Assembly (NCBI GenBank): GCA_963740905.1
Contig: CAVUFY010000013.1
Span: forward strand, 264,147 to 328,146
Direction of reading: 5' to 3'
Source: an uncultured delta proteobacterium
GTDB lineage: Bacteria; Desulfobacterota; DSM-4660; Desulfatiglandales; HGW-15
Length of the DNA stretch: 64,000 nucleotides
Below the pieces are notes generated by a model. That model was not told the DNA's origin. It saw only the letters and a program-made list of their open reading frames with translations, and searched no databases. A program made the translations under genes and the position numbers. Shown in pieces: positions 5,980-62,018 of this stretch (the stretch's first letter is position 1; the number at the start of each line of letters is the position of its first letter).

Positions 5980-6057
5980 GTTAAAGAAATCGGTTCTCTG
6001 TTCTGAGGACGCGGTACATTTCAGTTCCTAGAAACAAACCTGGAAAGGAGGGTGTTC

Positions 6058-7847: not shown

Positions 7848-7935
7848 CGCCAGGTCGGGATCTTGAGATCATCGCTCGGGAAAGAGAATCATGATCCTAT
7901 CGGAAGAAATAAACTGAATCATCCTTTTGAGGCTA

Positions 7936-8565
7936 ATGATGGGAAAGGATAGAGAAGCAGAAGGTGAGGGCGTAAGAGCTGAACCGGACCTTCTGATGGT
8001 CGTTTGTCAAGATCGGTTGTCTGCCTTTCAGGACCTTCTTCAAAGAGGCGTATGGGTAAAGGCGTTGATCGGTTCCACGGTTCAGTCTTTCCTCTGTGAC
8101 GGCCTGGGGATGGATCCACATTACGTGGATGAGAGAATTCAGACTGTGTTCTTGAATGGAAAAGCCGTTGACGATCCTTCCTCCGCCGTGATAACGGACC
8201 ACTCCACCATCGCTCTGTCCGCGGCCATGCCGGGACTCCTCGGGGCAACGTTGAGAAAGGGAAGCTATTATTCCAGAATGCGCAGCGAAATCTCTTACAG
8301 GGCACAAGAGGGAGTTCGGCCCCATGAAGGGTGGATTCTCCTGAAACTGTTCAACCTTCTTCCGCGGGAGATAGGTCCCCTGGTGCTACAGAAAGGTGCG
8401 AGGGTGAAAGGGAAGGACATCCAAGATTTTCTCGGAAAAAGGTCATCTTTTTTCTGGCAGGGTTGTATGGATGTGAGACTGAAGGGAAAGAAGGTGGACC
8501 CTGGCATGCTTGTCGATATGAAATGGCCGGAACAGGACGTCTTCCTCAGAGTCCAGGTAGCATAA
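7936..8565 (+). CDS. Hypothetical protein (about 209 aa) in the AOR-1 locus
   Basis: ORF 7927..8565, with the first ATG at 7936. I recognised no family. The segment IQTVFLNGKAVDDPSS is faintly beta-grasp-like. The antisense ORFs are Pro/Arg-rich junk. Confidence 0.5.
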   Translation: MMGKDREAEGEGVRAEPDLLMVVCQDRLSAFQDLLQRGVWVKALIGSTVQSFLCDGLGMDPHYVDERIQTVFLNGKAVDDPSSAVITDHSTIALSAAMPGLLGATLRKGSYYSRMRSEISYRAQEGVRPHEGWILLKLFNLLPREIGPLVLQKGARVKGKDIQDFLGKRSSFFWQGCMDVRLKGKKVDPGMLVDMKWPEQDVFLRVQVA

Positions 8566-8802
8566 TCATCCGCCGGCGACGGGCGGGAAAACTCCTATTC
8601 TGTCCCCTTCACGGAGCACTTCATCTCCTGTCGCTTGGACGCCGTTGAGAAAGACCACTTTTACGGCTTCCAGAGGGACCTTCATCGCCTCCAGAAGCTC
8701 TCTCACCGTGATCCCCACATTCGCCTCCACCGTCGGTGAACCCCTCCACTGCTCCGGCATGAAACGGGAAAGCGAGGCATAGAGTCTCAATTGTATTTTC
8801 AT
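8566..8802 (-). CDS. MoaD/ThiS-family sulfur-carrier protein (ends in Gly-Gly)
   Basis: 78 aa with C-terminal ...GDRIGVFPPVAGG. Confidence 0.75.
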   Translation of the reverse strand: MKIQLRLYASLSRFMPEQWRGSPTVEANVGITVRELLEAMKVPLEAVKVVFLNGVQATGDEVLREGDRIGVFPPVAGG

Positions 8803-8817
8803 GAAAGATCAATAACC

Positions 8818-9768
8818 ATGGCCAAAGACATTTGTCAACGGTCACTGGAAATGGACGATTTTCTTGCATTCCCCTCAAAAAAGCTTTACACGAGACCTAT
8901 GGAAGATGCGCTGGCGAAGATCATTCGAAGCAAAGCAAGAAGATTTGAGGATCCCGCAGGCCGCCAAGTGGACGTCCTTGATGAGCATGAGGCGCTGGAG
9001 ATAGGTCGGGCTTGCGATTCTTCCCTCCGCGAGATTTACAGGCAAGCCCTCCGCCTCGGCCTCTGTCCCTGTCGATACGTGAGGAACAGACAGATCCTTT
9101 CCCTCCAGGAACAACTGAAGCTGGCCGAGTCACGAGTAACGGTGGTGGGCGCCGGGGGGCTTGGAGGTTCTGTCCTGTCTTTGCTGGCCCGGGTGGGAGT
9201 GGGTCACCTCGTGGTGGTAGACAGTGATGCTTTCGATGAGACGAATTTGAATCGCCAAGCCTTTTGCCACGTTGAGAACCTGGGAAAGCTCAAGGCCCAA
9301 GAAGCGCGCAGCCAGATGAAACGCATCAACCCGGGCGTGGAGGTCACGGCCCACGCAACTCTCTTTGATGATTCCAACGGGAGGGAGATCCTCACCGGTT
9401 CTCAGGTCGCCGTCGACGCCCTTGACAATGTGGAGAGTCGTCTGGTCCTGGAAAAGATTGCCCGGAGTCTCTGTATCCCTCTGGTCCATGGAGCTCTGGC
9501 AGGTTTCGAGGGGCAGGTTATGACCATATTTCCCGGAGACACCGGACTGCGGCAAATCTATGGAGATGGAAGAAAAGAAACCGATGCTTTTGCGCGGCCA
9601 GAGGCGATTCTCGGGGTACCCGGGATTACGCCTTCCCTCGTCGCCGCCTTTCAGGCCATGGAAGTTCTCAAGATCCTGTTGAACCGGGGAAGCGTCTTCA
9701 GGAACACAATGGCCTACGTGGATCTTGAAAGCGGCGAAATCAGTCGTTTTAGTTTTAGTGAAGAGTGA
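8818..9768 (+). CDS. ThiF/MoeB/HesA-family adenylyltransferase with an N-terminal extension
   Basis: VTVVGAGGLGGSVLSLLARVGVGHLVVVDSDAFDETNLNRQ is the E1-like nucleotide-binding motif. The start is uncertain (8791, 8818 or later). Confidence 0.8.
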   Translation: MAKDICQRSLEMDDFLAFPSKKLYTRPMEDALAKIIRSKARRFEDPAGRQVDVLDEHEALEIGRACDSSLREIYRQALRLGLCPCRYVRNRQILSLQEQLKLAESRVTVVGAGGLGGSVLSLLARVGVGHLVVVDSDAFDETNLNRQAFCHVENLGKLKAQEARSQMKRINPGVEVTAHATLFDDSNGREILTGSQVAVDALDNVESRLVLEKIARSLCIPLVHGALAGFEGQVMTIFPGDTGLRQIYGDGRKETDAFARPEAILGVPGITPSLVAAFQAMEVLKILLNRGSVFRNTMAYVDLESGEISRFSFSEE

Positions 9769-31390: not shown

Positions 31391-32170
31391 TTACCGGGAG
31401 GTCACAGACTGTCTTTCGACCTTCAGGCGGATGGCTTCGGCCGCTTCCTTGGTAAAGGCTCCGAGGGCTTTCATCCTGGCTTCATCAAGACTCGCCTTGA
31501 ACCCCACGACCCAGATCGCGGACATGCGATGACTTCCCGCCATAATAGGCGCAGCCACAGCCCTCACTCCCGGGATATACTCTTCATCGTCCGTGGCAAA
31601 TCCCCGCTGTTTCACGACTTTCATTTCTTCACAATAACGGTCCAAGTCTGTGATTGTGTTGTCCGTGTATTTGGCCAGCCCCTTCATACGAATCTGCCTC
31701 ACTGCCTGCTCTTCTTCCATCATGGCCAGGAAGACCTTCCCGACAGCGCCCGCAAGGAGAGGGATGTTGGTTCCAATGGGGGAGGTGATTTTCAGGTCTG
31801 TCCTCGGTTCGACAATGTCGAGGATCGTGACGTGATCCCAGTTGAGCACACCTAGAAAAACGGAAGCTTGGGTCTTCTCCATGAGTTCTTCCATGGCGGG
31901 GCGCGCGAGATCCTTCAGGTCAATCTGCGAATAGGCCGTTTTGCCCAGTTCAAACAAGGTAAAACCCAGGGTGTAGCGTTTGGTCATGGGATCCCTTCGC
32001 ACGGCTCCCAACTCTTCCAGCGCGGAAGTCATGCCGTGCACCGTGCTCTTGGCCATGTCCAGTCCCCGGGCGATTTCACTGATGCCCATGCCTTCTTTGA
32101 CTGAGGCGATCAGTTTGAGGACCTCGAAGGCTTTTACGACGGAAGGAGCAGAGTATGCTTTTGCCATCAT
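31391..32170 (-). CDS. IclR-family transcriptional regulator
   Basis: N-terminal wHTH (VVKAFEVLKLI...GISEIARGLDMAKSTVHGM) and a C-terminal IclR effector domain. Confidence 0.88.
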   Translation of the reverse strand: MMAKAYSAPSVVKAFEVLKLIASVKEGMGISEIARGLDMAKSTVHGMTSALEELGAVRRDPMTKRYTLGFTLFELGKTAYSQIDLKDLARPAMEELMEKTQASVFLGVLNWDHVTILDIVEPRTDLKITSPIGTNIPLLAGAVGKVFLAMMEEEQAVRQIRMKGLAKYTDNTITDLDRYCEEMKVVKQRGFATDDEEYIPGVRAVAAPIMAGSHRMSAIWVVGFKASLDEARMKALGAFTKEAAEAIRLKVERQSVTSR

Positions 32171-32297
32171 TGTTCATCCTGTTGAACATTTTTTATAGTC
32201 TACTGCCTTCTCCTGCATATTGTCAATAGCCTTGTGTTGAGAGGTTGCCGCACGTGGGATTCAGGTGGAGCTTTATGTGTGCCTCCCCTATTTTTCC

Positions 32298-32325
32298 TTG
32301 ACAAAGCAGAGAAACCCGATAAGAT
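32298..32325 (+). promoter_or_regulatory. sigma70-type promoter candidate (CTTGACAAAGC...TAAGAT)
   Basis: TTGACA, 16 nt, TAAGAT. It lies in the divergent region between iclR and the membrane Fe-S gene. Confidence 0.35.
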
Positions 32326-32433
32326 ATTCACTGTTTTGGGTTCATAATGATGAACTCCCTTTCGGGACTTCAGTTCCGACGGAGTCGGGAGCTATCTGAA
32401 ATTCGAAGGAGTCGGATTTCAGGGAGGAACGAG

Positions 32434-33492
32434 ATGGATTTTGAAAACCTTGTCGAAGGTCCTTTACTGTGGATTGTTTTTCTCGTCCTCATCATCGCCG
32501 TCCTGGCAAGGCTGAGCTTTTTTTCCTTCAAAATTATCCATGACGCCGACACGGCGCAACCTGGGCGGAGTTCGAAAGCCGCCCTGTTCGGTCGATTCTT
32601 TTTCCCTTTCCATAAGGCATTGGTCAAGAGACCAGCCTATGCTCTCCCACGCTACATTTTTCATTTCTGCCTGTTTGTAGTTCCCCTCTGGTTGGGCGGT
32701 CATGTAGCGCTTTGGGCCGAATCCCGTTTTGAATGGGAGTGGTCTTCCCTGCCCGACCCCGTTGCGGACTGGATGACCATCGCCGTAATGGTCATAGCCG
32801 TGTTCTACGTCATCCGAAAGATCGCGTGGCCCGGTGTAAGACCAGGATCGTTGTCCGACTACCTGATCATCCTCATCGCCGCGCTACCTTTCTTCACCGG
32901 GTACTCTCTTTCTCACGGAACCCTCGACGCTCTGCCTGTGATCGGAGGGCATGTGATGCTCATCCATGTACTGAGCGGTCAGGCGATGATGGTCATGGCA
33001 GCGTTTCTCTTCTGCAGAACACGGCTAAACCCATCGAGATGCACGGGATGTGCTTCCTGCGAATTAAGCTGCCCTACCGGGACTCTCGAATCCAAAGATG
33101 AGGGAAGATTTCGAATTTTCAGTTACTCCCATTATCAATGCATTTGTTGTGGCGCCTGCGTTAACACCTGCCCGGAGAATGCTGCGGAGCTCAGACACGA
33201 AATCAGCCTCAAGGAGTTCTTTCAGGTTATCCCTAAGCAGGAAATCAGATCAGTAGAACTGAAGGCCTGCCAGAAATGCGGCGCTCTTTTCGTGCCCGAG
33301 CCTCTATTGGATAAAATCAACCGGACCTTTTCGGACGACTATCTCTTCTTCTGCCCGAACTGCAGAAAAACCAACCTCCTCAATCTGTACCGCAGGCTGT
33401 CACCCCTGTATACCAAAGAGCCGTCTCCTTCGCATGAGCCTGTGTTACCCGAGACAAAAAACGGCTCTTCCGAAAGACCCGCACACCGCTAG
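32434..33492 (+). CDS. Membrane protein: NarI/DsrM-like 5-TM (putative b-type cytochrome) domain fused to a 2x[4Fe-4S] ferredoxin domain
   Basis: About five hydrophobic helices carry His residues in helices 2 and 5 (FHFCL...GGHVALW; GGHVMLIHV). These are followed by CTGCASCELSCP and CICCGACVNTCP. The start is at MDFENL; the ORF opens at 32347. Confidence 0.7.
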   Translation: MDFENLVEGPLLWIVFLVLIIAVLARLSFFSFKIIHDADTAQPGRSSKAALFGRFFFPFHKALVKRPAYALPRYIFHFCLFVVPLWLGGHVALWAESRFEWEWSSLPDPVADWMTIAVMVIAVFYVIRKIAWPGVRPGSLSDYLIILIAALPFFTGYSLSHGTLDALPVIGGHVMLIHVLSGQAMMVMAAFLFCRTRLNPSRCTGCASCELSCPTGTLESKDEGRFRIFSYSHYQCICCGACVNTCPENAAELRHEISLKEFFQVIPKQEIRSVELKACQKCGALFVPEPLLDKINRTFSDDYLFFCPNCRKTNLLNLYRRLSPLYTKEPSPSHEPVLPETKNGSSERPAHR

Positions 33493-33611
33493 CTGTTCAC
33501 AATAATGAACGAAACGACCAAGGGCTTGTTTCTCCCGATTTTTCTTATATCAAATCAGCCACAACAGGCATTGGCACTCAATCAAATCTTTTTGGACCTG
33601 TTGTTTTTTGC

Positions 33612-33640
33612 TTGACAAAGCCATCTGATCTGTTACGATT
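33612..33640 (+). promoter_or_regulatory. sigma70-type promoter candidate (CTTGACAAAGC...TACGAT)
   Basis: TTGACA, 16 nt, TACGAT. It shares the extended -35 CTTGACAAAGC with the promoter at 32298. Confidence 0.35.
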
Positions 33641-33784
33641 CAATAAGATGTTCAGGGGAATGAACTCACCTGTACAGTGCGATAGGACGAATTGACCTTT
33701 GCTGGTTGGTTCTTTTTCGCAGCAGAAAGATCTGCCGCGACCACATGCTTCCAAGATACACTGGGAACAAGAAAGGAGATCGTT

Positions 33785-34063
33785 ATGGCGCCAGAGAAAG
33801 GAGATCTTTCAACAGCAGAAAGCCTGCGCTCTACCAGGACATACGGCAAATTCCGATGCCACAATCCCACATGCATGGAAAGGCTGGAACCCAAGAAAGG
33901 TGATAAAACCATCAAGTGCCCGTCGTGCGGCATGGAATACCGCGTTGCATGGGTCAAGGATGGACTCCCTCGAATCAGGGGACCGGTCTGGGACGTGAAC
34001 CGAAAAATCGCTGAAGAAGAATTAGCCAGAAAAATGCAGGCTAAGGGGAAGGAGGAGAAGTAA
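33785..34063 (+). CDS. Small zinc-ribbon protein (92 aa), translationally coupled to AOR-2
   Basis: AGGAGAT SD, then MAPEKGD...CHNPTCMERL...CPSCGMEY. Its stop overlaps the AOR-2 start (TAATG). Confidence 0.6.
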   Translation: MAPEKGDLSTAESLRSTRTYGKFRCHNPTCMERLEPKKGDKTIKCPSCGMEYRVAWVKDGLPRIRGPVWDVNRKIAEEELARKMQAKGKEEK

Positions 34064-36003
34064 TGCCTTTAAACAGAAAAATTGCTTATATTGATCTCAC
34101 CACAGGGGACATCCAGATAAAACCTATTCCTATCGAGGTTCGAAAAAAGTTCCTCGGAGGCAGAGGGCTGGACGCCTACCTGCTTTTTAACCACGCCAAA
34201 GAGGGGTGTGATCCCCTCGGCCCGGACAATGCGCTCATGGTGAGCGGCGGATTCCTTTGCGCCACCTGCGCTTCTGCAACGTCCAGGTGCCATGTGATGG
34301 CCAAATCCCCCCTAACCGGACTTTTGGGGAGCTGCAACATGGGCGGTTTTTTTTCTCCTGAAATGGCCTGGGCAGGGTTCCATCATCTGGTAATCACAGG
34401 CAAAGCCAAGCATCCCGTATACATCTATATCCATAACGGCGAAATCGAGATCCGTGACGCCCGCGGCGTGTGGGGCCTGAGTGTGACGGAAGCTCAATGG
34501 GCCATTCGGGATGATCTCGGCGACCAGGAAGTCAAGAGCATGGTCTGCGGCCCTGCCGGCGAGAACCTGGTCCGATACGCCAACGTGATGACCGGGATCA
34601 AAAACTCGGGCGGAAGGACAGGCATGGGCTGCGTCATGGGCTCGAAGAACCTCAAGGCCGTTGCCGCCAGGGGAACCATGGACATCCCCATCGCACACCC
34701 CAAAGAGGCTCTCGAATTCAATAAGCGTTTCATTGAACAGATCACGAGCGCCAAGGTGAACCAGACCCAGGGCACCATCGGTACGCCCTTCATCTGGGGC
34801 GCCACCAACTCCTGGGGAGGAATCCGGTGTAGGAACTTCCAGTTAAACCAGTGCGAATACGCGGATGACGTCGAACCTGAGCATCTCGACGAAATCGCCG
34901 AGGAAACGATCGGACCCTACCACATGACCGGTTGTTTCGGTTGTCAGGTGCACTGCCGGGCTCAGTACAAGATCCCAGATGGTCCCTATGCGGGCAAGTA
35001 TGATGAGGGGCCGGAATATACCTCCCAGGGCGCTTTCTGCGGGGAAACGGACACCCCCAGGGCAACTACTCTGCTGACAGCCAACCACCTTGTGGATCAG
35101 TACGGAGTGGACAACCTTGAAATCGGCAGCATTATCTCCTGGGCCATGGAGCTCTATGAGTTGGGGATACTGACCAGCAAAGACACGGACGGCGTGGATC
35201 TGCGCTTCGGCAATGACGAAGCGGTCATTGAAATGATCCACCGCATTTGCTACAGGAAGGGTTGGCTTGGCGACGCTCTGGCCGACGGAGGTATTCCTGC
35301 TTCGAAGAAGATCGGCAAGAACTCCTTCAGCTATCTGATCCAGGTCAAGGGCATGAGCAACCTTCATTCCGACGAGCGGGCCACGCCGGGCCTTGCGCTC
35401 AACATCGCCACCTCCTCCAGAGGTTCGGACCACCTGCGAAGCCGGCCTGCTATCGACCTTTATCACCTTCCTGAACCGGTCATGCGAAAGATTTACAGCA
35501 GTCCGGTTCCTTACGACGGACCCTTGAGCTCCGAGCATACGGAATATATCGGCAAACCCTGGCAGGTCTTCTGGCATGAAAACTGTTACATGGCCGTGGA
35601 TTGCCTCGGGATCTGCAAATACCACACGACTTTTCTCGGGGCGACCCTTCCCAACTTCGAGGACTGGGCAAAGGTCATTTACTACAATACGGGCCTTCAG
35701 TTTACCCCTCAGGAAATCTGGGAGGTCGCCGAGAGGTGTAACAACATGGAGCGGCTCTTCAACTTGAGGGAAGGGTTGTCCAAGGATGATCCTGAAAAGG
35801 GCGATGTGCTCAACCATCGTTATCACGACGAGCCTTGCAGGCGTGGCGCGCCGGACGTCGTCGGTCGACTCATTGATAAGGACAAGTTCCTGAAGATGAG
35901 GGCTGAGCTTTACGGCCACAAGGGTTGGGATGAAGATGGAATCCCCACACCTGAGACTCTGAAAAGACTCGGCATCGACAACGAGCCGTCACACTTGGTG
36001 TAA
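34063..36003 (+). CDS. aor: Tungsten-type aldehyde:ferredoxin oxidoreductase (AOR family), copy 2
   Basis: IAYIDLTTG...FLGGRGL..., Cys ligand region, and AOR C-terminal domains. At 646 aa it is longer than copy 1. Confidence 0.92.
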   Translation: MPLNRKIAYIDLTTGDIQIKPIPIEVRKKFLGGRGLDAYLLFNHAKEGCDPLGPDNALMVSGGFLCATCASATSRCHVMAKSPLTGLLGSCNMGGFFSPEMAWAGFHHLVITGKAKHPVYIYIHNGEIEIRDARGVWGLSVTEAQWAIRDDLGDQEVKSMVCGPAGENLVRYANVMTGIKNSGGRTGMGCVMGSKNLKAVAARGTMDIPIAHPKEALEFNKRFIEQITSAKVNQTQGTIGTPFIWGATNSWGGIRCRNFQLNQCEYADDVEPEHLDEIAEETIGPYHMTGCFGCQVHCRAQYKIPDGPYAGKYDEGPEYTSQGAFCGETDTPRATTLLTANHLVDQYGVDNLEIGSIISWAMELYELGILTSKDTDGVDLRFGNDEAVIEMIHRICYRKGWLGDALADGGIPASKKIGKNSFSYLIQVKGMSNLHSDERATPGLALNIATSSRGSDHLRSRPAIDLYHLPEPVMRKIYSSPVPYDGPLSSEHTEYIGKPWQVFWHENCYMAVDCLGICKYHTTFLGATLPNFEDWAKVIYYNTGLQFTPQEIWEVAERCNNMERLFNLREGLSKDDPEKGDVLNHRYHDEPCRRGAPDVVGRLIDKDKFLKMRAELYGHKGWDEDGIPTPETLKRLGIDNEPSHLV

Positions 36004-36025
36004 TTTTTGGATGAGGAGGAAACCA

Positions 36026-36523
36026 ATGGCTAAAGTGCTCTATGTTGATTACCAGAAATGCACAGGCTGCAGGCTCTGCGAACTTGTGTGTTCTGTGTTC
36101 CACGACGGCATTTCCAATCCGGCCAGAAGCCGAATCAGGGTCATGAAGTGGGAGCAGGAGGGGCTCTACATCCCCATGTCATGCCAGCAGTGTGTGGACG
36201 CCCCCTGCATGAATGTGTGCCCGGTCAAGGCTATTTCAAGAGATGAGGATATGGCCAGGGTCATGGTGGACTACGATAAATGTATCGGCTGCCGATCCTG
36301 CGTAGCCGTCTGTCCCTTCGGCGCCATGTCCTTCAATCGCATGGACAAGAAGGTGTTCAAGTGCGACGTCTGTGACGGCGATCCCCAGTGCGTCCGCTTC
36401 TGTGACATGAAGGCCGTGGATTATGTCGATGCCGACGAGGTAAGCATTCATAAGAGAAGGGATGCCGCCACAAGAGTATCCCGTGCGGGGAAAGAGGCGG
36501 CCGCCATGGTGGCACAACTCTAA
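36026..36523 (+). CDS. Poly-ferredoxin electron-transfer subunit (4 x [4Fe-4S] motifs, AorA/HybA-like)
   Basis: CTGCRLCELVCS, CQQCVDAPCMNVCP, CIGCRSCVAVCP, CDVCDGDPQCVRFC. Confidence 0.88.
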   Translation: MAKVLYVDYQKCTGCRLCELVCSVFHDGISNPARSRIRVMKWEQEGLYIPMSCQQCVDAPCMNVCPVKAISRDEDMARVMVDYDKCIGCRSCVAVCPFGAMSFNRMDKKVFKCDVCDGDPQCVRFCDMKAVDYVDADEVSIHKRRDAATRVSRAGKEAAAMVAQL

Positions 36524-36635
36524 CGCCATCACACAGTCAAATCAGAGAGGTTTCCGGTCGCCGGCTGGGAACCTCTTTTTCGACCGTTACATCTCGCAGG
36601 GCCCTTTGAGAGGCAGGGTTTTTTGAGAGGCGGCC

Positions 36636-38066
36636 ATGGAAATTAAGACCATCGATCTCCTTTCTGTCGGCATAGACGTCGGCAGCGCAACCAGTCACTT
36701 GGTCTTTTCAAACCTGGTCCTGGCGAAGGACGAGATGTCCCCGACGCTCCGGTTCAATATCAAGCAAAGAAAGGTCATTTACGAGGGCGAGATCATTCAG
36801 ACCCCTCTTCTCGAAGACAAGACTATTGATGTGGATGCGTTGACCGCCTTTTTCAGGCGGGAATACGAGAAGGCGGGAATTGACCCCGCCCACATTCAAA
36901 CCGGCGCGGTGATCATTACCGGGGAGTCGGCCAAGAGACACAACGCACGGCAGATCGCTCAGGCCCTGTCCAAGGATGCAGGGAAGCTCGTGGCGGCGAC
37001 TGCGGGCCCTAACTTCGAAAGCCTTCTCGCTGCTATGGGCTCCGGAGCAACCGGAAGATCAAGAGATCAGAGCAAGACCATACTTTCCTGCGACATCGGC
37101 GGCGGGACATCCAACCTGGCCATTTCCAGAAACGGTGAAGTTCTCTCAACGAGTTGCATCGCTGTAGGCGGCAGATTACTGGCCATGGATTCTGAGATAA
37201 GAATCCGCCAGTTTGCCGATCCGGCGATGAAAGTCATGCGGGATATCGGCTTGAACTATCAGGTCGGCGATCGGATACTCAAAGAGGATATTGGAAAAAT
37301 CGCATCCAGGATGGCCGAAGTGCTGGTTGAAGTGTTGACGGGGCCTGCCAAGTCTTCCCTGGCAAAACAGCTCATGGTAACCGGTGATCTGGACTTTTCG
37401 ACCCCTGTCGATGAATATCTGTTTTCCGGAGGGGTGGCAGAGATCATCTACGGAAGAAAGGGTCGTTACAATGACATCGGAAGTATTCTTGCAAAAAAGA
37501 TCCAATCGTTGATTCCTGCACTCAAGTCTCCGGTTGTAGAGCCGGTCAACAAGATCAGAGCGACGGTCATCGGTGCAGGGGCCTATTCCCTGTCCGTTTC
37601 GGGTTCGTCGGGCTTTATAGACGACCGTCTCATCCTTCCTATCAGAAACATCCCTGTCCTGAGGGTGGACGCGGAGCTTCCAAAGCTGAGTCTGGAACAT
37701 GTCGTTTCACGGGTGAACATGGCTTTTCGGAGACATGATTTGCTCGAAGGCCAGGAAATCGTGGCCCTCTACTTCAAGGACCCTGTCCGGGTCAACTATC
37801 CGGAGCTGGAGCTCTTTGCAAAAGCCATGGAAACGGCCCTTCCAAACTCTATCACCAAAGAGCTGCCCATTGTCCTCATTTTTGGAAAAGATATCGCATG
37901 CAGTGTGGGCAAGGTTATTCGCCGGGAAACCGATTTGAAAACCAATCTGCTTTCCCTGGACGAATTATCCCTCAACGACGGGGATTGGATCGATATTAGC
38001 GAGCCTTTGGTAGGGCGGCAGGTATTTCCTGTCACCGTCAAATCGCTCGTCTTCCCTGTAAACTAA
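36636..38066 (+). CDS. EutA-family (ethanolamine ammonia-lyase reactivase-like) ASKHA ATPase
   Basis: LLSVGIDVGSATSHLVFS...GAVIITGESAKRHNAR...VAATAGPNFES...DIGGGTSNLA...VGGRLL parallels E. coli EutA block by block, as I recall that sequence. Confidence 0.85.
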   Translation: MEIKTIDLLSVGIDVGSATSHLVFSNLVLAKDEMSPTLRFNIKQRKVIYEGEIIQTPLLEDKTIDVDALTAFFRREYEKAGIDPAHIQTGAVIITGESAKRHNARQIAQALSKDAGKLVAATAGPNFESLLAAMGSGATGRSRDQSKTILSCDIGGGTSNLAISRNGEVLSTSCIAVGGRLLAMDSEIRIRQFADPAMKVMRDIGLNYQVGDRILKEDIGKIASRMAEVLVEVLTGPAKSSLAKQLMVTGDLDFSTPVDEYLFSGGVAEIIYGRKGRYNDIGSILAKKIQSLIPALKSPVVEPVNKIRATVIGAGAYSLSVSGSSGFIDDRLILPIRNIPVLRVDAELPKLSLEHVVSRVNMAFRRHDLLEGQEIVALYFKDPVRVNYPELELFAKAMETALPNSITKELPIVLIFGKDIACSVGKVIRRETDLKTNLLSLDELSLNDGDWIDISEPLVGRQVFPVTVKSLVFPVN

Positions 38067-38264: not shown

Positions 38265-38735
38265 TCAGACTTTCAAAGCTCTCTCCAGCGCAAGTCCTGC
38301 CATCTTCCTTACATGCTCATCGCTTGAGATCAGGTAATCCGCGATTCCCTCTATAAACGATGCAGTGAAAAGCGCCAGTCCATCGAAGAGCTCTTCCTTT
38401 TCCTCCTTTGCCCGGAGACACACGATCTTAGGAAACTTTCTCTGCTTCTTGAATCCTTCCACAAGGATCAAATCACAACCGGCACAATATGGGAGCATGT
38501 CATCAAGACTCTTTTCTCCCTTGACGATGATTTCTGCCTCCCCGGGAGAAGCGGCTGCAACCACCTCGGCGAAGGGTCTGTATCTGGACGAATCCGCATC
38601 GGCAAGCCGGAGCTCACAGGAAACGTGTTTGACCACCCCCACACGCAGCCCTTTGTCGGAGAGTTCCCTGCACAGTTTAACACCCAGCGTGGTCTTGCCG
38701 CTCTTGTGGTAACCGACGATGCCGATGACTTTCAC
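38265..38735 (-). CDS. mobB: Molybdopterin-guanine dinucleotide biosynthesis adaptor protein MobB-like
   Basis: MKVIGIVGYHKSGKTTL...VGVVKH... and MobB-like size. Confidence 0.8.
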   Translation of the reverse strand: MKVIGIVGYHKSGKTTLGVKLCRELSDKGLRVGVVKHVSCELRLADADSSRYRPFAEVVAAASPGEAEIIVKGEKSLDDMLPYCAGCDLILVEGFKKQRKFPKIVCLRAKEEKEELFDGLALFTASFIEGIADYLISSDEHVRKMAGLALERALKV

Positions 38736-38741
38736 TTCATT

Positions 38742-39014
38742 CTATCCTCCTGCAAGCATCATGGTCACATGAATCTCATCCCCATCCTTTACCGGTTTAA
38801 GCAGTTCATTCGGGTAGGCGCTCTGCATATTCAAATAGATCTCCACGACGTTGTTGAGTCCCCCCTTCTTATCGAAGATGTTCGGCCCCATGCCCGGGAA
38901 TATCCCTACCAGAGTCTTTAGGCATTCTCCTACCGTTTTTCCTTCCACCTCGACCATTTCCTGCCCGTTTGCGTATTGTCTGAGAGTCAGGTGAAGGTTT
39001 ACTTTCACACCCAT
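38742..39014 (-). CDS. moaD: MoaD/ThiS-family sulfur carrier (C-terminal Gly-Gly)
   Basis: 90 aa, ...GDEIHVTMMLAGG. Confidence 0.8.
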   Translation of the reverse strand: MGVKVNLHLTLRQYANGQEMVEVEGKTVGECLKTLVGIFPGMGPNIFDKKGGLNNVVEIYLNMQSAYPNELLKPVKDGDEIHVTMMLAGG

Positions 39015-39017
39015 GTC

Positions 39018-39761
39018 CTACTCCTCCTTGGCCACGTGGGCACAGTGTTCACATTCCGGATTCCTGCTCACCTTGAATTCGGCAAACCTCAGATTCAGCC
39101 CATCGTAGATCAACAAACGATTGACGAGCAGTTCGCCGGCCCCCGTGAGATATTTTATGACCTCCGTAGCCTGGATGCAACCGATAACCGCCGGTGTAGC
39201 ACCGAGAACAGGGAATTTCTCATGAGGTCCGGGGCCTCTGTAGAGACAGCGCAAGCATGCGCTTTTTCCCGGAATTACAGTCATGGCCCGTCCTTCCAGG
39301 CCGCGGACCGCGCCATGGAAAAAAGGAATACGCAGCGCGACGGCCGCTCTGTTCAGGATGAACCTTGTAGGCAGGTTATCCATGGCGTCCACGATTGCGT
39401 CACATCCTGTCGTAAGATCCTTCACATTGTCTTCTGTGATCGTCTTGTCTACGATTTCCACCTTGACGTGAGGATTCATTTTTCGAAGCTTTTCACTTGC
39501 TGAATCCACTTTCTTTCTTCCCACGTCTTCATCCCAGTGGAGGATCTGTCTATTCAGGTTGCTCACCTCAATCCTGTCATGATCTGCCAGCCTGATCCCG
39601 CCCACGCCGGCAACGGCGAGATACATGCTGACAGGTGATCCGAGACCTCCTGCGCCCGCAACAAACACTCTTGCCTCTTTCAGTTTCTCCTGCCCGGCTT
39701 CCCCAATCTCCGGGATCATGATCTGCCTGTCGTATCTTTTCAGCTCTTCGGCTTTGAACAT
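39018..39761 (-). CDS. moeB: Molybdopterin-synthase adenylyltransferase (MoeB/ThiF family)
   Basis: RYDRQI...VFVAGAGGLGSPV...DHDRIEVSNLNRQ and C-terminal CxxC pairs (CLRC, CEHC). Confidence 0.88.
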   Translation of the reverse strand: MFKAEELKRYDRQIMIPEIGEAGQEKLKEARVFVAGAGGLGSPVSMYLAVAGVGGIRLADHDRIEVSNLNRQILHWDEDVGRKKVDSASEKLRKMNPHVKVEIVDKTITEDNVKDLTTGCDAIVDAMDNLPTRFILNRAAVALRIPFFHGAVRGLEGRAMTVIPGKSACLRCLYRGPGPHEKFPVLGATPAVIGCIQATEVIKYLTGAGELLVNRLLIYDGLNLRFAEFKVSRNPECEHCAHVAKEE

Positions 39762-39928: not shown

Positions 39929-41342
39929 ATGACTGTCAAACGACAAAAGATGGTCATTCTTGCAAGCTATCTTCCCGGCGAAACCTACGGCCTTCTCGGA
40001 CCCCAGGCAGCGGCAACCATCATTCAGGGGCATTCCCCTTACGAATGCGTCGTCCTCGCGGTCACCAGAGAGGATGACAAAAGCCTGCTCAAAAAGCTCC
40101 TGGCCCGTTTCTTCGACTCTGGAAAGGCCTGTGGTCGGCTTTTCTTACCTCAGCGGAAGAGAAGACCTCTTCTCTTTTGCTAAAGAACTCACCGAGGAGG
40201 GAGGATTCACTATTCTAGCCGGTCCCCAAGCCGATGTGGATTACCTAGGTGAAAAGGAATGGCGAAAATACGACCACCGTTTTAACGGACTTTCAAAACA
40301 CTTTTCCTTAGCCCTGCACGGGCCTGCAGAGCAGATTCTTGCACTTTTTCATGAACCGAAACAAAGCGCCTGGAGCAAAGTGCCCGGATTGCTTTGGCCG
40401 GATAAAGAACAGGGGTTGATCCAGAATCCGAAGTCCTCATGGGATCCAGCCCGTTTCACCAGAGTTTCATGGAATAACCTTTATCGCCTGGTGGATGGCC
40501 AAATGGTCCCTCTGAAGATTACCACCGCGCAAGTTCTCTGGCATATCGGTTGCCCTCATGCGGCCCGCGCCCGGCTTGCGGAAGTGGATTATCCGGCGTT
40601 CCTGGCTGGAGGGGAAAGAAAGAAAACAAAGGTCCTTCTCAGGGGTTGCAGTTTCTGCGACGTGGCAGTAGACAAGGGTTTCCTCGGCTCTCTCGGCATC
40701 GAAGCCGTTCTCTCTCAGATCCAGAACCTTCCTGAAAAGGAGGACGGCCGGAAGATAAGTTTTGAATTGATCAATGAAAACGCCCTTCCTAGCCTTCCTC
40801 GCCTGCTGGAAGCGCTCAGGATCAAGGGGGTCAGTCTCTCCCAGATCCATCTCACTCTCAGGGCCGACTGGTTCGGACTGGGGGAAGCCTACCTCCGGCA
40901 AGCCCTGCGATTGGCCCGGGAGATGGGAATCCGGATCTTACTGGGGTCCATGGGTTTTGAATCCTTTGACGACACGATCCTTGCCAATCTCCACAAAGGC
41001 CTGGATGTGAGCACCAACCTGCGCGCCATTCAGCTTATGCGTCAAATGAAGAATGAGTTTCCCGACCAGTGGAGCTACTCCAGGCAGGATGGGGCCGTCC
41101 ATGGGTTCATTCATCCTACCCCTTGGGACACGGAGGAGACGGAGGCCAACAGCCGCAAAATTATTAACACCTACGGGTTGGCCCTTGACATCCTGCCGGA
41201 TCACAGTATACCTCTCATCATTCACCATGCCTCGGCCCTCGGGGACTGGATTCGCGAAGTGGAGACGAAAGAGAATATTCAATTCAAAAGGGAGGGCACC
41301 ATCATCGGATGGTGGCAGGCGGGAGATCAATTTGTGCTGTAG
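39929..41342 (+). pseudogene. B12-binding-like domain / radical-SAM-like protein with an apparent 1-nt frameshift near 40121-40130
   Basis: Frame A (39929-40130) gives MTVKRQKMVILASYLPGETYGLLGPQAAATIIQG...LLARFFDSGK. Frame B continues (R)PVVGFSYLSGREDLFSFAKELTEEGGFTILAGPQA, as in B12-binding domains. The C-terminus has GCSFCDV and LGSMGFESFDDTILANLHKG (radical-SAM-like). The alternative is two separate genes, the second starting at a GTG near 40129. Confidence 0.6.
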
Positions 41343-41389
41343 GAATGAACCCCGCAGATTTCATGGGACCAGAGCAAAGGAGGAAAGAC

Positions 41390-41584
41390 ATGAAAGTAAG
41401 GATTGATTACGACCTGTGCATGGGAGACAGGAATTGTAACAAGGTCTGCCCCGAGGTTTTTCAGTATGATGAAGACAAGCTCATATCACGTGTTCTAGCC
41501 GAAGTGGTGCCTAGACACCTGGAGAAGGCCGTGAGAAAAGCGGCTCGAGAATGCGCGCCGGGAGCCATTGTCGTGGAGGAGTAG
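41390..41584 (+). CDS. Small single-cluster ferredoxin
   Basis: AGGAGG SD, then MKVRIDYDLCMGDRNCNKVCPEVF...ECAPGAIVVEE. Confidence 0.7.
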   Translation: MKVRIDYDLCMGDRNCNKVCPEVFQYDEDKLISRVLAEVVPRHLEKAVRKAARECAPGAIVVEE

Positions 41585-58166: not shown

Positions 58167-60818
58167 TTAGAGGAGTCGATGCAGCCTGTCCATCACTCCT
58201 TCATACTCCTCTTCTCGGAAGCAGAACCGAAGGTCAAGAAACTGAGCCCGGAGAGCTTTCACCCGATCGATCACTTTCATGTTTTTCTCAACCACGTCGT
58301 ACAAGAGTGTGGCCAGGACACGGAAATCATCCTCTTCCATGCCGAACCGAGTCATTTCTGAAACGCCCAACCTTAAAGCGCCGGCAACGGTGAAACCCTC
58401 TTCCTCCGGAGTAGCCTGATAGTTACAGATGATGTTGTTTTCTTCGAGTCGTTTGGCGATTTCCGGTCCCCGACCGTAGCCCACCTTAACTATGACCTGG
58501 TGTGTTTCTGTAAAGTCGATAGCCGGGTCACCTGCCACATCCAGTCCGCAGTCTTTGATCGCCCTGGCAAAGGCTTTGGCATTCCTGATCACCCTGGGCT
58601 GGTAAAGATTCTTGAAATGGTTCATTTCGTAGGCTGCCATCAACAGGCCAAGGAGGGTGCCCAGGTGATGATTCGAAGTCGAGCCGGGAAACGCGCGCCG
58701 CTGGACAGCCTCCCAGAGATCATACCTTTCCTCGTGCTCCAAGAAAGGGCTGGCCACTACTCCGCGCTGAGTCCCAAAAAACGTCTTGTGAGTCGATCCG
58801 GTCACCAGGTCCGCTCCCTCTTTGAAGGGTTCCTGAAAGTAAGGACCTACCAAGCCTAAAACGTGAGCCATGTCATACATGACGACAGTGCGCAAATTCT
58901 GCTCGTCGATAAACCGGCAGATCTCTGCCACCGGTTCCCTGTGAAGCACCATGCTCTTCCCGAAGATGATCATTTCCGGCCGGAACTCCTCCACCAGGTC
59001 CAGGGCCTTCGGGACATCGATTTTGTAGGGATTTTCCTGGAGCACAGGGAAATTGATCACTGCCGCTCTTTCCGTCTGTGGGTCTCGTGCCACAAAATCC
59101 CTCAGGGCGCCCATGGGCTGGGCGCTCAAATGCCCCCCCTTTCCGAGATGGTTGTTCATTACAAGACGGATGCGCCGTTGCTCACTCTTGCGGTCCGGGC
59201 GGTTGATGTAATCCACCATAGCGCTGAAGACGGCCATGTTGGCCATTTGGCCGCTAATGATCCTTGTCTCGACTTCTGCACATCCCAGGAACTTCTTCAT
59301 CTCTTCGTGGATCATCCGCTCCACCTCATCGATAAACTCCGTCCCCTGGTAGTAATAGATCTCCATGTCATAAAAAGCCTTGGACTTCCTGTGCTCTGCA
59401 TATCGAAAGGACGGATCGGTGATGGACAGCATTCTAACCATCGGAGAGGCCGTCATTTCAGAAGGAATCAGATTGATGCATTCCCTTTGCCGCCACAGGT
59501 GGTTTTCAAGAGAACGTTGGAGGAGCCTTCCGGCCAGTGAGGGTTCTTGTCCCGAAGGAAGCGCTTCAGTCCGAGGCTCATGATTGAAAATAATGGGGCG
59601 CGCGTAGGGAGGAGCCTCGTTGCGGAGATGGCATTCAACCGCCACGGCTTCCACGCTTCTGCCTCGGATATCAATGCTCACCTGATCTCCTTCTATGATG
59701 TCGCTTGCGATATGAGCGAGGCAGATAGAGCGAAGTTGTTTTTGGTCGGTCATTTCGGAAGCAAGCCCTTCACCTTTGACGACCCAGTAAGGGACCATGG
59801 TTCCGCTCGTCACGTAACCCACATGCTTTCCGTTCCTGAATACTTTTGAGCCGGTGCGAGCCACGCCTCGGCCTGCAACTGCCAAAGGCTGAACCAGGCG
59901 AGGAAGGTCGGCGATCATGGAATAGTCTCTCTCCATAATCCTCCCGAGAGCCTCAAACTGAACGGCAAGGGCATCTCTTCCGACGAAATGGGCCTTGAGA
60001 GGAGAAAAGCTCACGCCGATTCTTACCATGGGGAAACTGAGGACGGGCATGTCCCCACCCTCCGGATCCTGACCCAGTTCGTGGCCGTAAAGGGGCAAAC
60101 CTGCTTCCAGTCTAAGGGTGTCCCTTGCCCCTAAGCCGACGGGCGTAGCTCCCTGACTCCTCAAAGCATCCCAAAGCGCTGGACCCTGGTCGTGTGGCAC
60201 AAAGAGCTCAAAACAAAGGGGTTCACCGGTGTAGCCGGTACGCGCCACCATGACTTGGATGCCCGAAAACGCCGCCACGCTCACCGTATTCCGCATGGGC
60301 TCAGGAAGTGACCCGGCGTCTATGAGACGTTCAAGAATGTTCCGTGATTCAGGGCCCTGCAGGGAAAGCATGACCACCTCTTGAGTCACGTCCCTCAACT
60401 CAACCTTGGGGAACGCTTTCAGGTAGTGCTGGAAGTGGTTCCAATCTTTCTTCGAGTTGGAAGCATTCACGACGAGCAGGTATTCATCGTCCAGGAACCG
60501 ATACAGGTAGGCGTCGTCAACCGTTCTACCCCTTTCGTCCGGTATGAGCGTATACTGCGCCCCTATGATCCTGGGATCAAGACCGGCGGCGTTATTGCTG
60601 AGGACGTGATTCAGAAAATTCAGCGACCCTTCTCCACGAATGATGAACCGGCCCATGTGGGACACATCGAAAAGACCCGCCCCCTTCCTTGTGGCCAGAT
60701 GCTCCTCCACGATTCCTGTAGGGTAAAGCACCGGCATCTCCCAGCCGGCGAAATCTACCATCTTGGCACCGAGTGAAACATGTCTGTCATAGAATACAGT
60801 CTTCTTGAACTGACCCAT
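58167..60818 (-). CDS. Fusion protein: glycine cleavage T-protein (aminomethyltransferase) N-terminus and serine hydroxymethyltransferase-like C-terminus
   Basis: N-terminus: TVFYDRHVSLGAKMVDFAGWEMPVLY...GLFDVSHMGRF...ARDTLRLEAGLPLYGHEL (GcvT). C-terminus: INLIPSEMTASPMV...GGHLS...LVTGSTHKTFFGTQRGVV (SHMT PLP-lysine motif). The ORF is 883 codons with no interruption. Confidence 0.88.
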   Translation of the reverse strand: MGQFKKTVFYDRHVSLGAKMVDFAGWEMPVLYPTGIVEEHLATRKGAGLFDVSHMGRFIIRGEGSLNFLNHVLSNNAAGLDPRIIGAQYTLIPDERGRTVDDAYLYRFLDDEYLLVVNASNSKKDWNHFQHYLKAFPKVELRDVTQEVVMLSLQGPESRNILERLIDAGSLPEPMRNTVSVAAFSGIQVMVARTGYTGEPLCFELFVPHDQGPALWDALRSQGATPVGLGARDTLRLEAGLPLYGHELGQDPEGGDMPVLSFPMVRIGVSFSPLKAHFVGRDALAVQFEALGRIMERDYSMIADLPRLVQPLAVAGRGVARTGSKVFRNGKHVGYVTSGTMVPYWVVKGEGLASEMTDQKQLRSICLAHIASDIIEGDQVSIDIRGRSVEAVAVECHLRNEAPPYARPIIFNHEPRTEALPSGQEPSLAGRLLQRSLENHLWRQRECINLIPSEMTASPMVRMLSITDPSFRYAEHRKSKAFYDMEIYYYQGTEFIDEVERMIHEEMKKFLGCAEVETRIISGQMANMAVFSAMVDYINRPDRKSEQRRIRLVMNNHLGKGGHLSAQPMGALRDFVARDPQTERAAVINFPVLQENPYKIDVPKALDLVEEFRPEMIIFGKSMVLHREPVAEICRFIDEQNLRTVVMYDMAHVLGLVGPYFQEPFKEGADLVTGSTHKTFFGTQRGVVASPFLEHEERYDLWEAVQRRAFPGSTSNHHLGTLLGLLMAAYEMNHFKNLYQPRVIRNAKAFARAIKDCGLDVAGDPAIDFTETHQVIVKVGYGRGPEIAKRLEENNIICNYQATPEEEGFTVAGALRLGVSEMTRFGMEEDDFRVLATLLYDVVEKNMKVIDRVKALRAQFLDLRFCFREEEYEGVMDRLHRLL

Positions 60819-61613: not shown

Positions 61614-62018
61614 ATGAAAGAGTTGAGCGAACTCATACTACCTGAAGACGTGCGTTTTGCGAAGGATCACGAATGGGCGAAGATGGAGAAGGATAATGTG
61701 AAAGTGGGGATCAGCGACTATGCCCAGGATCAGCTCGGGGATATCGTGTTTGTTGAATTGCCTCGTGTTGGGGATACCCTGTCTAAAGGAGACCAATTCG
61801 GTACCGTGGAGTCGGTGAAAGCGGTATCGGAGCTTTTTATGCCCCTCAGCGGAGAGGTCCTTGCTGTCAACATGGTCCTCGAGGAATCTCCGGAATTAGT
61901 GAACAAGTCTCCCTATGATGAAGGATGGATGATCGAGCTGAAACCAAGCGATCTGTCCGAACTGAATGATTTGATGAGCAAAGAGACCTACATCTATATG
62001 CTGAAAGGATCGGAGTAA
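61614..62018 (+). CDS. gcvH: Glycine cleavage system H protein
   Basis: FAKDHEWA...GISDYAQDQLGDIVFVELP...VESVKAVSELFMPLSGEV (lipoyl-Lys). Confidence 0.93.
   Translation: MKELSELILPEDVRFAKDHEWAKMEKDNVKVGISDYAQDQLGDIVFVELPRVGDTLSKGDQFGTVESVKAVSELFMPLSGEVLAVNMVLEESPELVNKSPYDEGWMIELKPSDLSELNDLMSKETYIYMLKGSE

Follow-up and report, generated by a model that had tools for sequence, protein, structure and literature searches.

A conserved gene cluster with a non-canonical AOR-family oxidoreductase and a NarI-family cytochrome b–ferredoxin fusion in uncultured anaerobes: a candidate membrane-linked complex

A gene cluster built around an AOR/WOR-family enzyme, here called AOR-2, was analysed in a 64 000-nucleotide stretch of DNA (the window) from an uncultured delta proteobacterium (GenBank contig CAVUFY010000013.1, positions 264,147 to 328,146 of the forward strand; coordinates below are those of the window). 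On balance the evidence tilts towards a membrane-anchored AOR/WOR-family (tungsten/molybdenum bis-pterin) oxidoreductase complex on a NarGHI-like plan, which would pass electrons to menaquinone. The observations behind this reading are the homology of an adjacent membrane protein, MemFd, to TmcC, HmcE and NarI, the recurrence of MemFd beside AOR-2 in distant bacteria and a candidate operator common to the two transcription units. The active site of AOR-2 is altered, and the direction of electron flow is accordingly weighed with care below.

Catalytic and accessory subunits

The genes of the window were checked by listing open reading frames (ORFs) and by Pfam and NCBIfam scans. An earlier reading of this DNA, made from the sequence alone (the sequence-only reading), had described a regulator divergent from a five-helix membrane protein with two 4Fe-4S motifs, followed by a small CxxC...CxxC protein, an AOR, a four-cluster ferredoxin and an EutA-family ATPase; all of these features were found where it had placed them.

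31391–32170, minus strand: IclR-family transcription regulator, divergent from the membrane gene (HTH_IclR 6e-16, IclR_C 8.8e-36; Pfam)
32434–33492, plus strand: MemFd, cytochrome-b/ferredoxin fusion (Pfam/NCBIfam)
33785–34063, plus strand: Zn92, 92-residue CxxC...CxxC protein of the Zn-ribbon type
34063–36003, plus strand: AOR-2, AOR/WOR-family catalytic subunit of 646 residues (AFOR_N 3.9e-71, AFOR_C 9.4e-98)
36026–36523, plus strand: Fd4, AorA-like cytoplasmic polyferredoxin with four [4Fe-4S] motifs
36636–38066, plus strand: EutA-family ASKHA ATPase (PF06277 1.9e-135)

Ribosome-binding sites were present ahead of Zn92 (AAGGAG) and MemFd (GGGAGG), the latter backing the MemFd start at 32434. 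For Fd4 a start at 36026 is more likely than one at 36011, because a GAGGAGG ribosome-binding site precedes 36026 and the orthologues are 165 residues long. The stop codon of Zn92 and the start codon of AOR-2 share the sequence TAATG at 34061–34065, and Zn92 is, to judge from the gene junction, translationally coupled to AOR-2.

The closest solved relatives of AOR-2 in the Protein Data Bank (PDB) were the AOR of P. furiosus (6.4e-91), the AOR of 9mqx and AorB (1.7e-73). Individual residues were read from a residue-level alignment and an alignment of 52 sequences, with P. furiosus numbering used for the reference sites. The equivalents of the [4Fe-4S] ligands Cys288, 291, 295 and 494 were invariant in 49 orthologues, which together with the AFOR_N and AFOR_C domains identifies AOR-2 as a member of the AOR/WOR family. 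The conserved second shell of aldehyde-oxidizing AORs consists of Thr243, Glu313, Tyr427 and His448 (PMC12096430). AOR-2 keeps the threonine (Thr241 here) and the histidine (His457 here), whereas the catalytic Glu313 is replaced by Thr320 in the motif GPEYTSQGAF and Tyr427 by Ser436 in the motif NLHSDER. These two replacements were found in 46–47 of 49 members of the AOR-2 clade, which is strongly conserved, at 76–94 % identity even between phyla. With Glu313 and Tyr427 changed to Thr and Ser, an aldehyde substrate is not assured for AOR-2, and the label ‘aldehyde/acid oxidoreductase’ given by the sequence-only reading turns out to be an assumption, two of the four second-shell residues having been replaced. 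Cys326 of AOR-2 was considered as a BamB-like metal ligand and rejected, the position being Gly in orthologues.

The window contains a second AOR, AOR-1 (6052–7800, 582 residues), which is 27 % identical to AOR-2 and has the canonical Thr/Glu/Tyr/His second shell. Downstream of AOR-1 lie a 212-residue ORF of no recognized family (7927–8565) and a ThiF-family gene (8791–9768).

Zn92 was encoded directly upstream of the AOR in 47 of the 48 loci of the AOR-2 clade found in genomes (see below). Its family comprises 513 protein clusters, all annotated as hypothetical and none with a Pfam domain, in which the motifs are strongly conserved. Zn-ribbon-like four-cysteine motifs occur both in Zn92 (33785–34063) and in the C terminus of MemFd (residues 279–310, window positions 33271–33366).

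Fd4 has 16 cysteines arranged in four motifs and no signal peptide. Its best PDB matches were AorA (8c0z_C, 2.6e-43) and the polyferredoxin 9mqx_E (3.5e-43), so that an AorA-like four-cluster polyferredoxin is encoded beside the catalytic gene, as in systems of the AorABC type. In the solved AorABC complex AorA wires AorB to its partner (PDB 8c0z). The absence of an FAD subunit, remarked on in the sequence-only reading, was borne out: no AorC-like gene was detected among the window ORFs of at least 180 residues scanned by Pfam, and no AorC-like FAD/NAD subunit was found in the 27–43 kb region, among the other large ORFs of the window or in the conserved neighbourhood of related loci.

The EutA homologue is full length (positions 3–474 of the 475 of the PF06277 profile), shows 34 % identity to E. 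coli EutA over its entire length and has intact phosphate motifs, DVGSAT and DIGGGT. It scores 388 bits against an NCBIfam EutA equivalog cut-off of 598 bits. The gene was present in 15 of the 48 genome loci of the AOR clade and in 13 of 16 well-flanked metagenome loci anchored on Zn92, taking at least three different positions or orientations relative to the AOR cluster; the two homologues of about 70 % identity whose contigs were inspected both lay within clusters of the AOR-2 type. A role as an electron-injecting activator of the BcrAD/HgdC type was considered and rejected, since the protein has one Cys in common with E. coli EutA and no cluster motif. What the EutA-like protein does is conjecture; it would best be accounted for as a factor that uses ATP to activate, repair or assemble the enzyme.

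The membrane protein MemFd

MemFd consists of a cytochrome-b domain (residues 1 to about 198), a 2×[4Fe-4S] ferredoxin domain (Cys203–246) and a C-terminal CxxC-x24-CxxC motif (Cys279–310). Both CxxCxxCxxxCP motifs of the ferredoxin domain and the C-terminal motif were invariant among MemFd homologues. The N-terminal part (residues ~3–190) matched the NCBIfam models TmcC (7e-31) and HmcE (4.5e-23). An exhaustive search with residues 1–200 retrieved fusion-type relatives of about 320–350 residues together with stand-alone proteins of about 220 residues, several of which pass the curated cut-offs for TmcC or HmcE.

The sequence-only reading had called the membrane domain NarI-like, and comparison of profiles agreed with it. 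When the MemFd family was aligned by hhalign with the NCBIfam-verified TmcC/HmcE set, a probability of 100 % was obtained (E 9.7e-44, 182 columns). The TmcC/HmcE profile in turn had NarI as its sole match among PDB sequences (E 7.7e-9), and in the alignment the four conserved histidines of TmcC/HmcE fell on the NarI heme ligands H56, H66, H187 and H205 or were displaced from them by one residue at most. The link to NarI is drawn through TmcC/HmcE because direct alignment of MemFd with the single NarI sequence was weak and uninformative (10.6 % probability). Judged by these alignments, the membrane domain of MemFd really is a TmcC/HmcE (NarI-family) cytochrome-b domain.

The NarI-type pattern of heme ligands was only partly retained. 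His77, His90 and His178 of MemFd correspond to NarI H56, H66 and H187 and are invariant in homologues, whereas the position of NarI H205, within the TmcC motif TKLxH, reads TRLNP in MemFd. The distal-heme pair (equivalents of H66 and H187) is thus complete and the proximal heme has one canonical ligand; His60, which lies in a cytoplasmic loop and is invariant only in the close MemFd family, could be a substitute ligand. Heme content varies within the NarI family: mycobacterial EtfD has one heme and the Syntrophus EMO three, with only three conserved histidines (bioRxiv 10.64898/2026.08.18.745454, in which the family is compared). The pattern of three out of four histidines is therefore not disqualifying for MemFd, for which heme b binding and reactivity with quinone or quinol are putative.

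A first AlphaFold model of MemFd, made from 19 sequences, had a pLDDT of 54 and NarI as its top Foldseek match at E 0.55, and was replaced. The model of residues 1–200 made from 73 sequences (pLDDT 80, pTM 0.75) contains five long helices, and its top PDB match was M. smegmatis EtfD (9ojn; Foldseek probability 0.94, E 0.18, TM 0.45). This modelled likeness to EtfD is suggestive, not conclusive. The charge pattern read from the sequence, with an acidic N terminus and basic loops, fits an N-out, C-in topology, which would therefore place the ferredoxin domain in the cytoplasm.

The ferredoxin domain matched NuoI, PorD and polyferredoxins and was not of the HdrC type. A sequence search with this domain did not retrieve EtfD, and no CCG domain was detected in MemFd by Pfam. 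Because its ferredoxin domain is of the NuoI/PorD/polyferredoxin type rather than the HdrC type, MemFd appears to be an independent fusion.

Conservation of the neighbourhood and a shared candidate operator

Loci encoding MemFd were collected from one genome per species, which gave 72 loci, all from metagenome-assembled genomes (MAGs), with 69 full matches. Most hosts were Desulfobacteraceae-, Desulfatiglandales- or ‘Deltaproteobacteria’-like; the others were Fischerbacteria, Aminicenantes and Clostridia. The AOR-2 clade was present at 48 of the 69 loci, and at 19 of the 26 that had at least 3.5 kb on both sides. This linkage spans four phyla and two gene orders and persists in the MAGs of Fischerbacteria, Aminicenantes and Clostridia. 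The usual order was MemFd followed by Zn92-AOR-Fd4; seven loci had instead a compact Zn92-AOR-Fd4-MemFd block, as seen in L044, L050, L062, L066, L067 and L068, with tight Fd4-MemFd junctions of ~20–75 bp in L044, L062 and L066. In a second scan, of metagenomes and anchored on Zn92, at least 588 loci were recovered, 16 of them with adequate flanks, and MemFd was present in 12 of these 16. AOR, Fd4, Zn92 and MemFd are thus conserved as neighbours across phyla and in several orders, as the sequence-only reading had required of its proposal, but the association is not obligatory: coupling of MemFd with AOR-2 is frequent, no more.

The cluster was abundant in metagenomes from sediment, wetland and subsurface. 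Besides the Zn92 loci, at least 948 clusters of MemFd were counted and, at ≥ 70 % identity, over 100 of EutA. All copies found came from uncultured Desulfobacterota-like and other anaerobes.

Several loci departed from the common arrangement. In one (L055, 5122–8987) a MemFd homologue directly follows a cytoplasmic-type Mo-bisPGD oxidoreductase and a four-cluster ferredoxin; because MemFd is paired there with a Mo-bisPGD enzyme, it looks like a general-purpose membrane module that serves several Mo/W enzymes. Another locus (L140, 4259–7447) lacked MemFd and had an NrfD-type membrane protein and an NrfC/DmsB-like ferredoxin upstream of the AOR-2 cluster, an apparent non-orthologous replacement of MemFd, by gene content, with a different quinone-interacting module. 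L140 also has, upstream, a distant homologue of the ~460-residue protein described below. In a locus type from Aminicenantes and Clostridia MAGs (L062, 628–11192), a NuoE/NuoF/NuoG-N-terminal module (NADH module of the HydABC/WOR1 type), FdhD and DUF454 precede Zn92-AOR-Fd4-MemFd. The domains were scanned in L062, and L068 matches it in the sizes and order of its ORFs. Such an arrangement may point to a larger complex that has an outlet to NAD(H) as well as one to the membrane. An ADP-forming acyl-CoA synthetase (ACS) follows the cluster in L062, and the ORF in the corresponding place of L068 is equal in size; in L079 the ACS that follows is AMP-forming.

Other AOR types were found near MemFd in L063, L069 and L071. 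Those of L069 and L071 (AOR-like ORF at 1779–3764 in L071), a few kb from MemFd, have the motif GPLVASCN, lack His448 and share 40 % identity with the N-terminal domain of YdhV from E. coli. Orphan MemFd genes with no AOR nearby were located directly downstream of selB, which encodes the selenocysteine elongation factor (L022, 5995–7944; L042, 1779–3728).

Repeat analysis of the two intergenic regions of the cluster revealed a palindrome, GTTCA-N6-TGAAC, that the sequence-only reading had overlooked.

32226–32197, minus strand: predicted iclR promoter
32172–32187: candidate operator O1 (GTTCATCCTGTTGAAC), abutting the iclR start codon, downstream of the predicted iclR promoter
32298–32325, plus strand: promoter-like site of the membrane gene (TTGACA, 16 nt, TAAGAT), within the 11-mer CTTGACAAAGC
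32340–32355: candidate operator O2 (GTTCATAATGATGAAC), 15 bp 3' of the −10 box of the membrane gene and 168 bp from O1
33495–33510: candidate operator O3 (GTTCACAATAATGAAC), right after the MemFd stop codon
33612–33639, plus strand: promoter-like site of the Zn92-AOR operon (TTGACA, 16 nt, TACGAT with a TG extension)
33650–33665: candidate operator O4 (GTTCAGGGGAATGAAC), 11 bp 3' of the −10 box and 155 bp from O3

The palindrome had exactly four matches in the window against 0.07 expected, a number reached in none of 100 shuffles, and all four fell in the two intergenic regions, flanking both plus-strand promoters and the iclR start. Each plus-strand −10 box has one palindrome 11–15 bp downstream and a partner copy 155–168 bp further upstream. 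The shared −35 element noted in the sequence-only reading was also confirmed, CTTGACAAAGC being present exactly at 32297 and 33611, in both cases within a sigma-70-like promoter with a 16-nt spacer. Two exact copies compare with 0.05 expected, and one of 100 shuffles reached two. As regulatory evidence the 11-mer was set aside: it is real but essentially the −35 box, and the palindrome is much the stronger evidence.

The palindrome had 112 exact matches in the 742 kb of the 69 related loci from species-representative genomes, and 104 of them lay no more than 450 bp upstream of a MemFd or Zn92 start. The density there was 2.1 per kb compared with 0.012 per kb elsewhere, an enrichment of about 180-fold, and the paired arrangement upstream of MemFd recurred. 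The IclR gene was kept beside the cluster in 36 of 48 loci of the AOR clade. The regulator has both domains of its family, HTH_IclR and IclR_C, and the target promoters have a palindromic candidate operator in common, as in IclR-family regulons. From its position, the palindrome has the layout expected of an autoregulated IclR-type repressor controlling both units. Since it sits at both promoters and at iclR, and is enriched at the equivalent sites in relatives, the two units and iclR are taken to form one IclR regulon, with the palindromes as the probable binding sites of the regulator.

Downstream of the EutA gene lie further genes, among them a block for maturation of the pterin cofactor.

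38265–38735, minus strand: MobB, pterin-cofactor maturation
38742–39014, minus strand: MoaD/ThiS-like, pterin-cofactor maturation
39018–39761, minus strand: MoeB/ThiF-like, pterin-cofactor maturation
39950–41342, plus strand: conserved protein of ~460 residues, often with the cluster, family not recognized (weak Radical_SAM match only)

Genes for MobB and for MoaD-like and MoeB-like proteins were conserved beside the cluster in many loci. MobB, which acts in guanine-dinucleotide cofactor synthesis, stands here within an AOR maturation block; AOR-family enzymes use a non-nucleotide bis-metallopterin. The MobB homologue of L003 carries a fused FeS domain (PF04060). The ~460-residue gene accompanies many AOR-2 clusters. 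In the window it is split near 40125 by a 1-bp frameshift, seen by comparison with the orthologue in L001; this reflects either a pseudogene or a mistake in the assembly. An ORF for a small single-cluster ferredoxin (41309–41584) comes next. No Moco/Wco riboswitch or other RNA family was found in the 31–42 kb region of the window. Further away, an 883-residue ORF (58167–60818, minus strand) with GCV_T (glycine-cleavage T-protein) and SHMT domains looks like an unusual fusion, and a GDC-P gene lies near it at 62018–63349.

Proposed electron flow, alternatives and comparison with known systems

In the complex that we tend to favour, the cytoplasmic catalytic unit would be AOR-2 with Zn92 as a tightly bound small Zn-ribbon subunit, and Fd4 would be the electron wire between AOR-2 and the membrane. 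MemFd would be the membrane anchor, exchanging electrons with the menaquinone pool and bringing two [4Fe-4S] clusters of its own on the cytoplasmic side. The most probable flow would be from oxidation of an aldehyde-like, probably polar substrate to menaquinone. The EutA-like ATPase may use ATP to (re)activate the enzyme or to assist its assembly, and the MoaD/MoeB/MobB genes would provide the pterin cofactor. MemFd and the Zn92-AOR-Fd4-EutA operon would be transcribed from separate promoters, both of them, and iclR, under the divergent IclR regulator, which is predicted to bind the paired palindromes overlapping the transcription starts. Oxidation is favoured as the direction because of the structural precedent of EtfD/EMO and the acid-activating genes near some clusters. 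Against this direction stand the retained distal-heme site, typical of quinol-oxidizing reductases, the waste of about 0.5 V and the non-canonical active site.

A number of points weigh against this proposal. Aldehyde oxidation (about −580 mV) coupled to menaquinone (about −74 mV) would waste a large driving force, and a distal quinone site of the NarI type is typical of quinol-oxidizing reductases, both of which argue that the direction may be the reverse. TmcC and HmcE themselves probably act together with periplasmic cytochromes c, in place of quinones or in addition to them. The intramembrane electron path is uncertain because the equivalent of NarI His205, the second proximal-heme ligand, is missing from MemFd, and the likeness of MemFd to the solved NarI and EtfD structures is borderline (Foldseek E 0.18–0.55). 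AOR-2 lacks the Glu and Tyr conserved in aldehyde-oxidizing AORs and so departs from the second shell of that class. The MemFd gene has a separate promoter and lies 290 bp away from the AOR operon, and about a quarter of the loci of either partner, MemFd or AOR-2, are without the other nearby. For the proposed role of EutA we know of no precedent outside B12 enzymes.

A bolder reading, possible but doubtful, is that the cluster represents a hitherto unrecognized respiratory-type enzyme class in which an AOR-family bis-pterin (W or Mo) subunit, its active site remodelled by Thr/Ser in place of the catalytic Glu/Tyr, and a dedicated Zn-ribbon subunit are wired NarGHI-style to a NarI-family cytochrome b. 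Such an enzyme would not carry out ordinary aldehyde oxidation but some different reaction, and might work as a quinol-dependent reductase, and an EutA-type ATPase would service a non-B12 client. If this were true, the EutA of the cluster would be the first EutA-family reactivase acting on a non-B12 client.

Reversal of the favoured complex is a serious rival, albeit a rather unlikely one. Menaquinol would be oxidized at the periplasm-facing distal heme and electrons would travel through the Fe-S chain to AOR-2, which would reduce a relatively high-potential substrate other than a carboxylic acid, with energy conserved by a NarGHI-style redox loop. MemFd does keep both distal heme ligands of NarI (the H66 and H187 equivalents), and the NarI, DsrMK and HdrDE members of its family run in this direction. 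The non-canonical active site of AOR-2 makes a non-aldehyde reaction possible, and MemFd stands beside a Mo-bisPGD enzyme in L055. However, the characterized members of the AOR family besides BamB are described as aldehyde oxidoreductases (PMC12096430), with no terminal reductase known; EtfD and EMO, of the same architecture, can reduce menaquinone from cytoplasmic donors (PMC13083937); the ACS genes beside some clusters fit acid formation; and the neighbouring genes suggest no candidate oxidant.

It is unlikely that AOR-2, Zn92 and Fd4 form a soluble enzyme dependent on ferredoxin or another carrier, with MemFd an independent membrane redox protein of the same regulon, or simply nearby, that exchanges no electrons with it directly. 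Such independence would agree with the separate promoters and the 290-bp gap, with the 7 of 26 well-flanked MemFd loci that lack the AOR clade (including the orphans by selB or by unrelated genes) and with the 4 of 16 well-flanked AOR-clade loci that lack MemFd; the HydABC-like NADH module upstream in L062 and L068 could then be the real partner. Yet the adjacency holds across phyla and rearrangements, down to the ~20–75 bp Fd4-MemFd junctions in L044, L062 and L066, the palindromic operator is common to both units and conserved in pairs upstream of each, and an NrfD module stands in for MemFd in L140. MemFd also needs a redox partner, because it has no catalytic domain of its own.

Catabolism of ethanolamine and acetaldehyde, in which EutA would reactivate a B12-dependent ethanolamine ammonia-lyase encoded elsewhere and AOR-2 would oxidize acetaldehyde, is very unlikely. 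The EutA homologue is full length with intact ATPase motifs, and acetyl-CoA synthetase genes follow some clusters, but tblastn with EutB and EutC gave nothing significant in the window and 159 related loci (1.53 Mb in total), EutA accompanies just 15 of the 48 genome loci and falls below the equivalog cut-off (388 versus 598 bits), and the active site of AOR-2 departs from that of acetaldehyde-oxidizing AORs. Least probable of all is that AOR-2 belongs to the BamB/YdhV type and is not an aldehyde oxidoreductase but either a dearomatizing reductase or a Mo enzyme whose function is unknown. In its favour are the non-canonical second shell, the Desulfobacteraceae- and Desulfatiglandales-like hosts, from groups in which degraders of aromatic compounds occur, and a proposal that the Bam complex has an output to the membrane or to quinone (PMC12096430). 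However, AOR-2 has no conserved Cys metal ligand in the corresponding region (Cys326 being Gly in orthologues) and is therefore not of this type. BamB was also its weakest PDB match (3.8e-57, N-terminal part only), similarity to YdhV is 28 % and limited to the N-terminal domain, and no BamDEFGHI-like Hdr genes are present in the window.

A full-text literature search found no description of this combination of genes, in line with the view of the sequence-only reading that the system is undescribed. The components are from known superfamilies; the combination differs. Five features distinguish it: the Thr/Ser second shell, the Zn-ribbon subunit, the AorA-like ferredoxin, the fusion of a TmcC-type cytochrome b with a NuoI-type ferredoxin, and the orphan EutA. 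The complex favoured here would give the AOR family a direct membrane-bound link to the quinone pool and the respiratory chain, would define a new AOR clade whose active site differs and which has a novel small subunit, and would give the orphan EutA family a new client. Because it is abundant in metagenomes of anoxic environments and its copies come from uncultured anaerobes, the cluster may stand for a significant route, so far left out of account, by which electrons flow during carbon turnover under anoxia. Its conserved IclR operator could help in finding the inducing substrate.

The sequence-only reading had taken characterized AORs to be either soluble ferredoxin-dependent enzymes or AorABC complexes. 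This background was incomplete: characterized enzymes of the family are described as stand-alone or with a polyferredoxin with FAD, HydABC-like or Bam partners, and the known complexes also include WOR1 with a HydABC-like module, the WOR5/ASOR and GOR heterodimers and BamB-I, whilst the ydhYVWXUT genes of E. coli pair an AOR-family protein with a putative cytochrome b and many AOR-family clades are purely hypothetical according to a 2025 review (PMC12096430).

Like AorABC of Aromatoleum aromaticum (8c0z) and the WOR1-type complex (9mqx), the cluster combines an AOR-family subunit with a four-cluster polyferredoxin and has MoaD-/MoeB-like maturation genes nearby. It differs from both in that the window lacks an FAD subunit (AorC) or a HydABC-like module, in the addition of the cytochrome-b/ferredoxin fusion, the Zn-ribbon subunit and the EutA-like ATPase, and in the change of the catalytic Glu/Tyr to Thr/Ser. 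NarGHI has in common with it a cytoplasmic catalytic subunit, a four-cluster ferredoxin and a five-helix cytochrome b, but the catalytic subunit here is of the AOR family and not the DMSO-reductase family. The membrane domain of MemFd is homologous to TmcC, HmcE and NarI, with three of the four heme histidines conserved; unlike these proteins, MemFd is fused to its own 2×[4Fe-4S] domain and has lost the NarI His205 equivalent, and, unlike in the Tmc and Hmc complexes, no HdrD-like CCG partner (TmcB/HmcF) or cytochrome c is encoded near it.

EtfD, in which a five-helix heme-b domain is joined to two cubane clusters and CCG domains, passes cytoplasmic electrons to menaquinone (PMC13083937). EtfD/EMO, the ETF:(methyl)menaquinone oxidoreductases (9ojn), HdrDE and QmoC resemble MemFd in having a NarI-type domain followed by a two-cubane [4Fe-4S] domain in a single chain, with the clusters facing the cytoplasm; they connect a cytoplasmic redox partner with menaquinone, as is proposed for MemFd. 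MemFd is set apart from EtfD/EMO and HdrDE by the lack of a CCG domain and by a ferredoxin of the NuoI/PorD/polyferredoxin rather than the HdrC type; furthermore, the histidines retained as heme ligands are not the same: both proximal ones and one distal in EMO, both distal ones and one proximal in MemFd. The EutA of the cluster has full-length homology to E. coli EutA and the conserved ASKHA ATPase motifs, but unlike the EutA reactivase it is not encoded beside eutBC or any B12 enzyme and is instead tightly linked to the AOR cluster.

The closest conceptual precedent for a membrane-linked AOR-family system is ydhYVWXUT of E. coli, itself uncharacterized, in which the AOR-family protein YdhV is accompanied by ferredoxin-like proteins and the putative membrane cytochrome YdhU. 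YdhV, however, belongs to a clade with Cys-ligated Mo and is 28 % identical to AOR-2 in the N-terminal domain only, YdhU has no sequence similarity to MemFd, and the Ydh system has an extra ferredoxin-like protein, YdhX.

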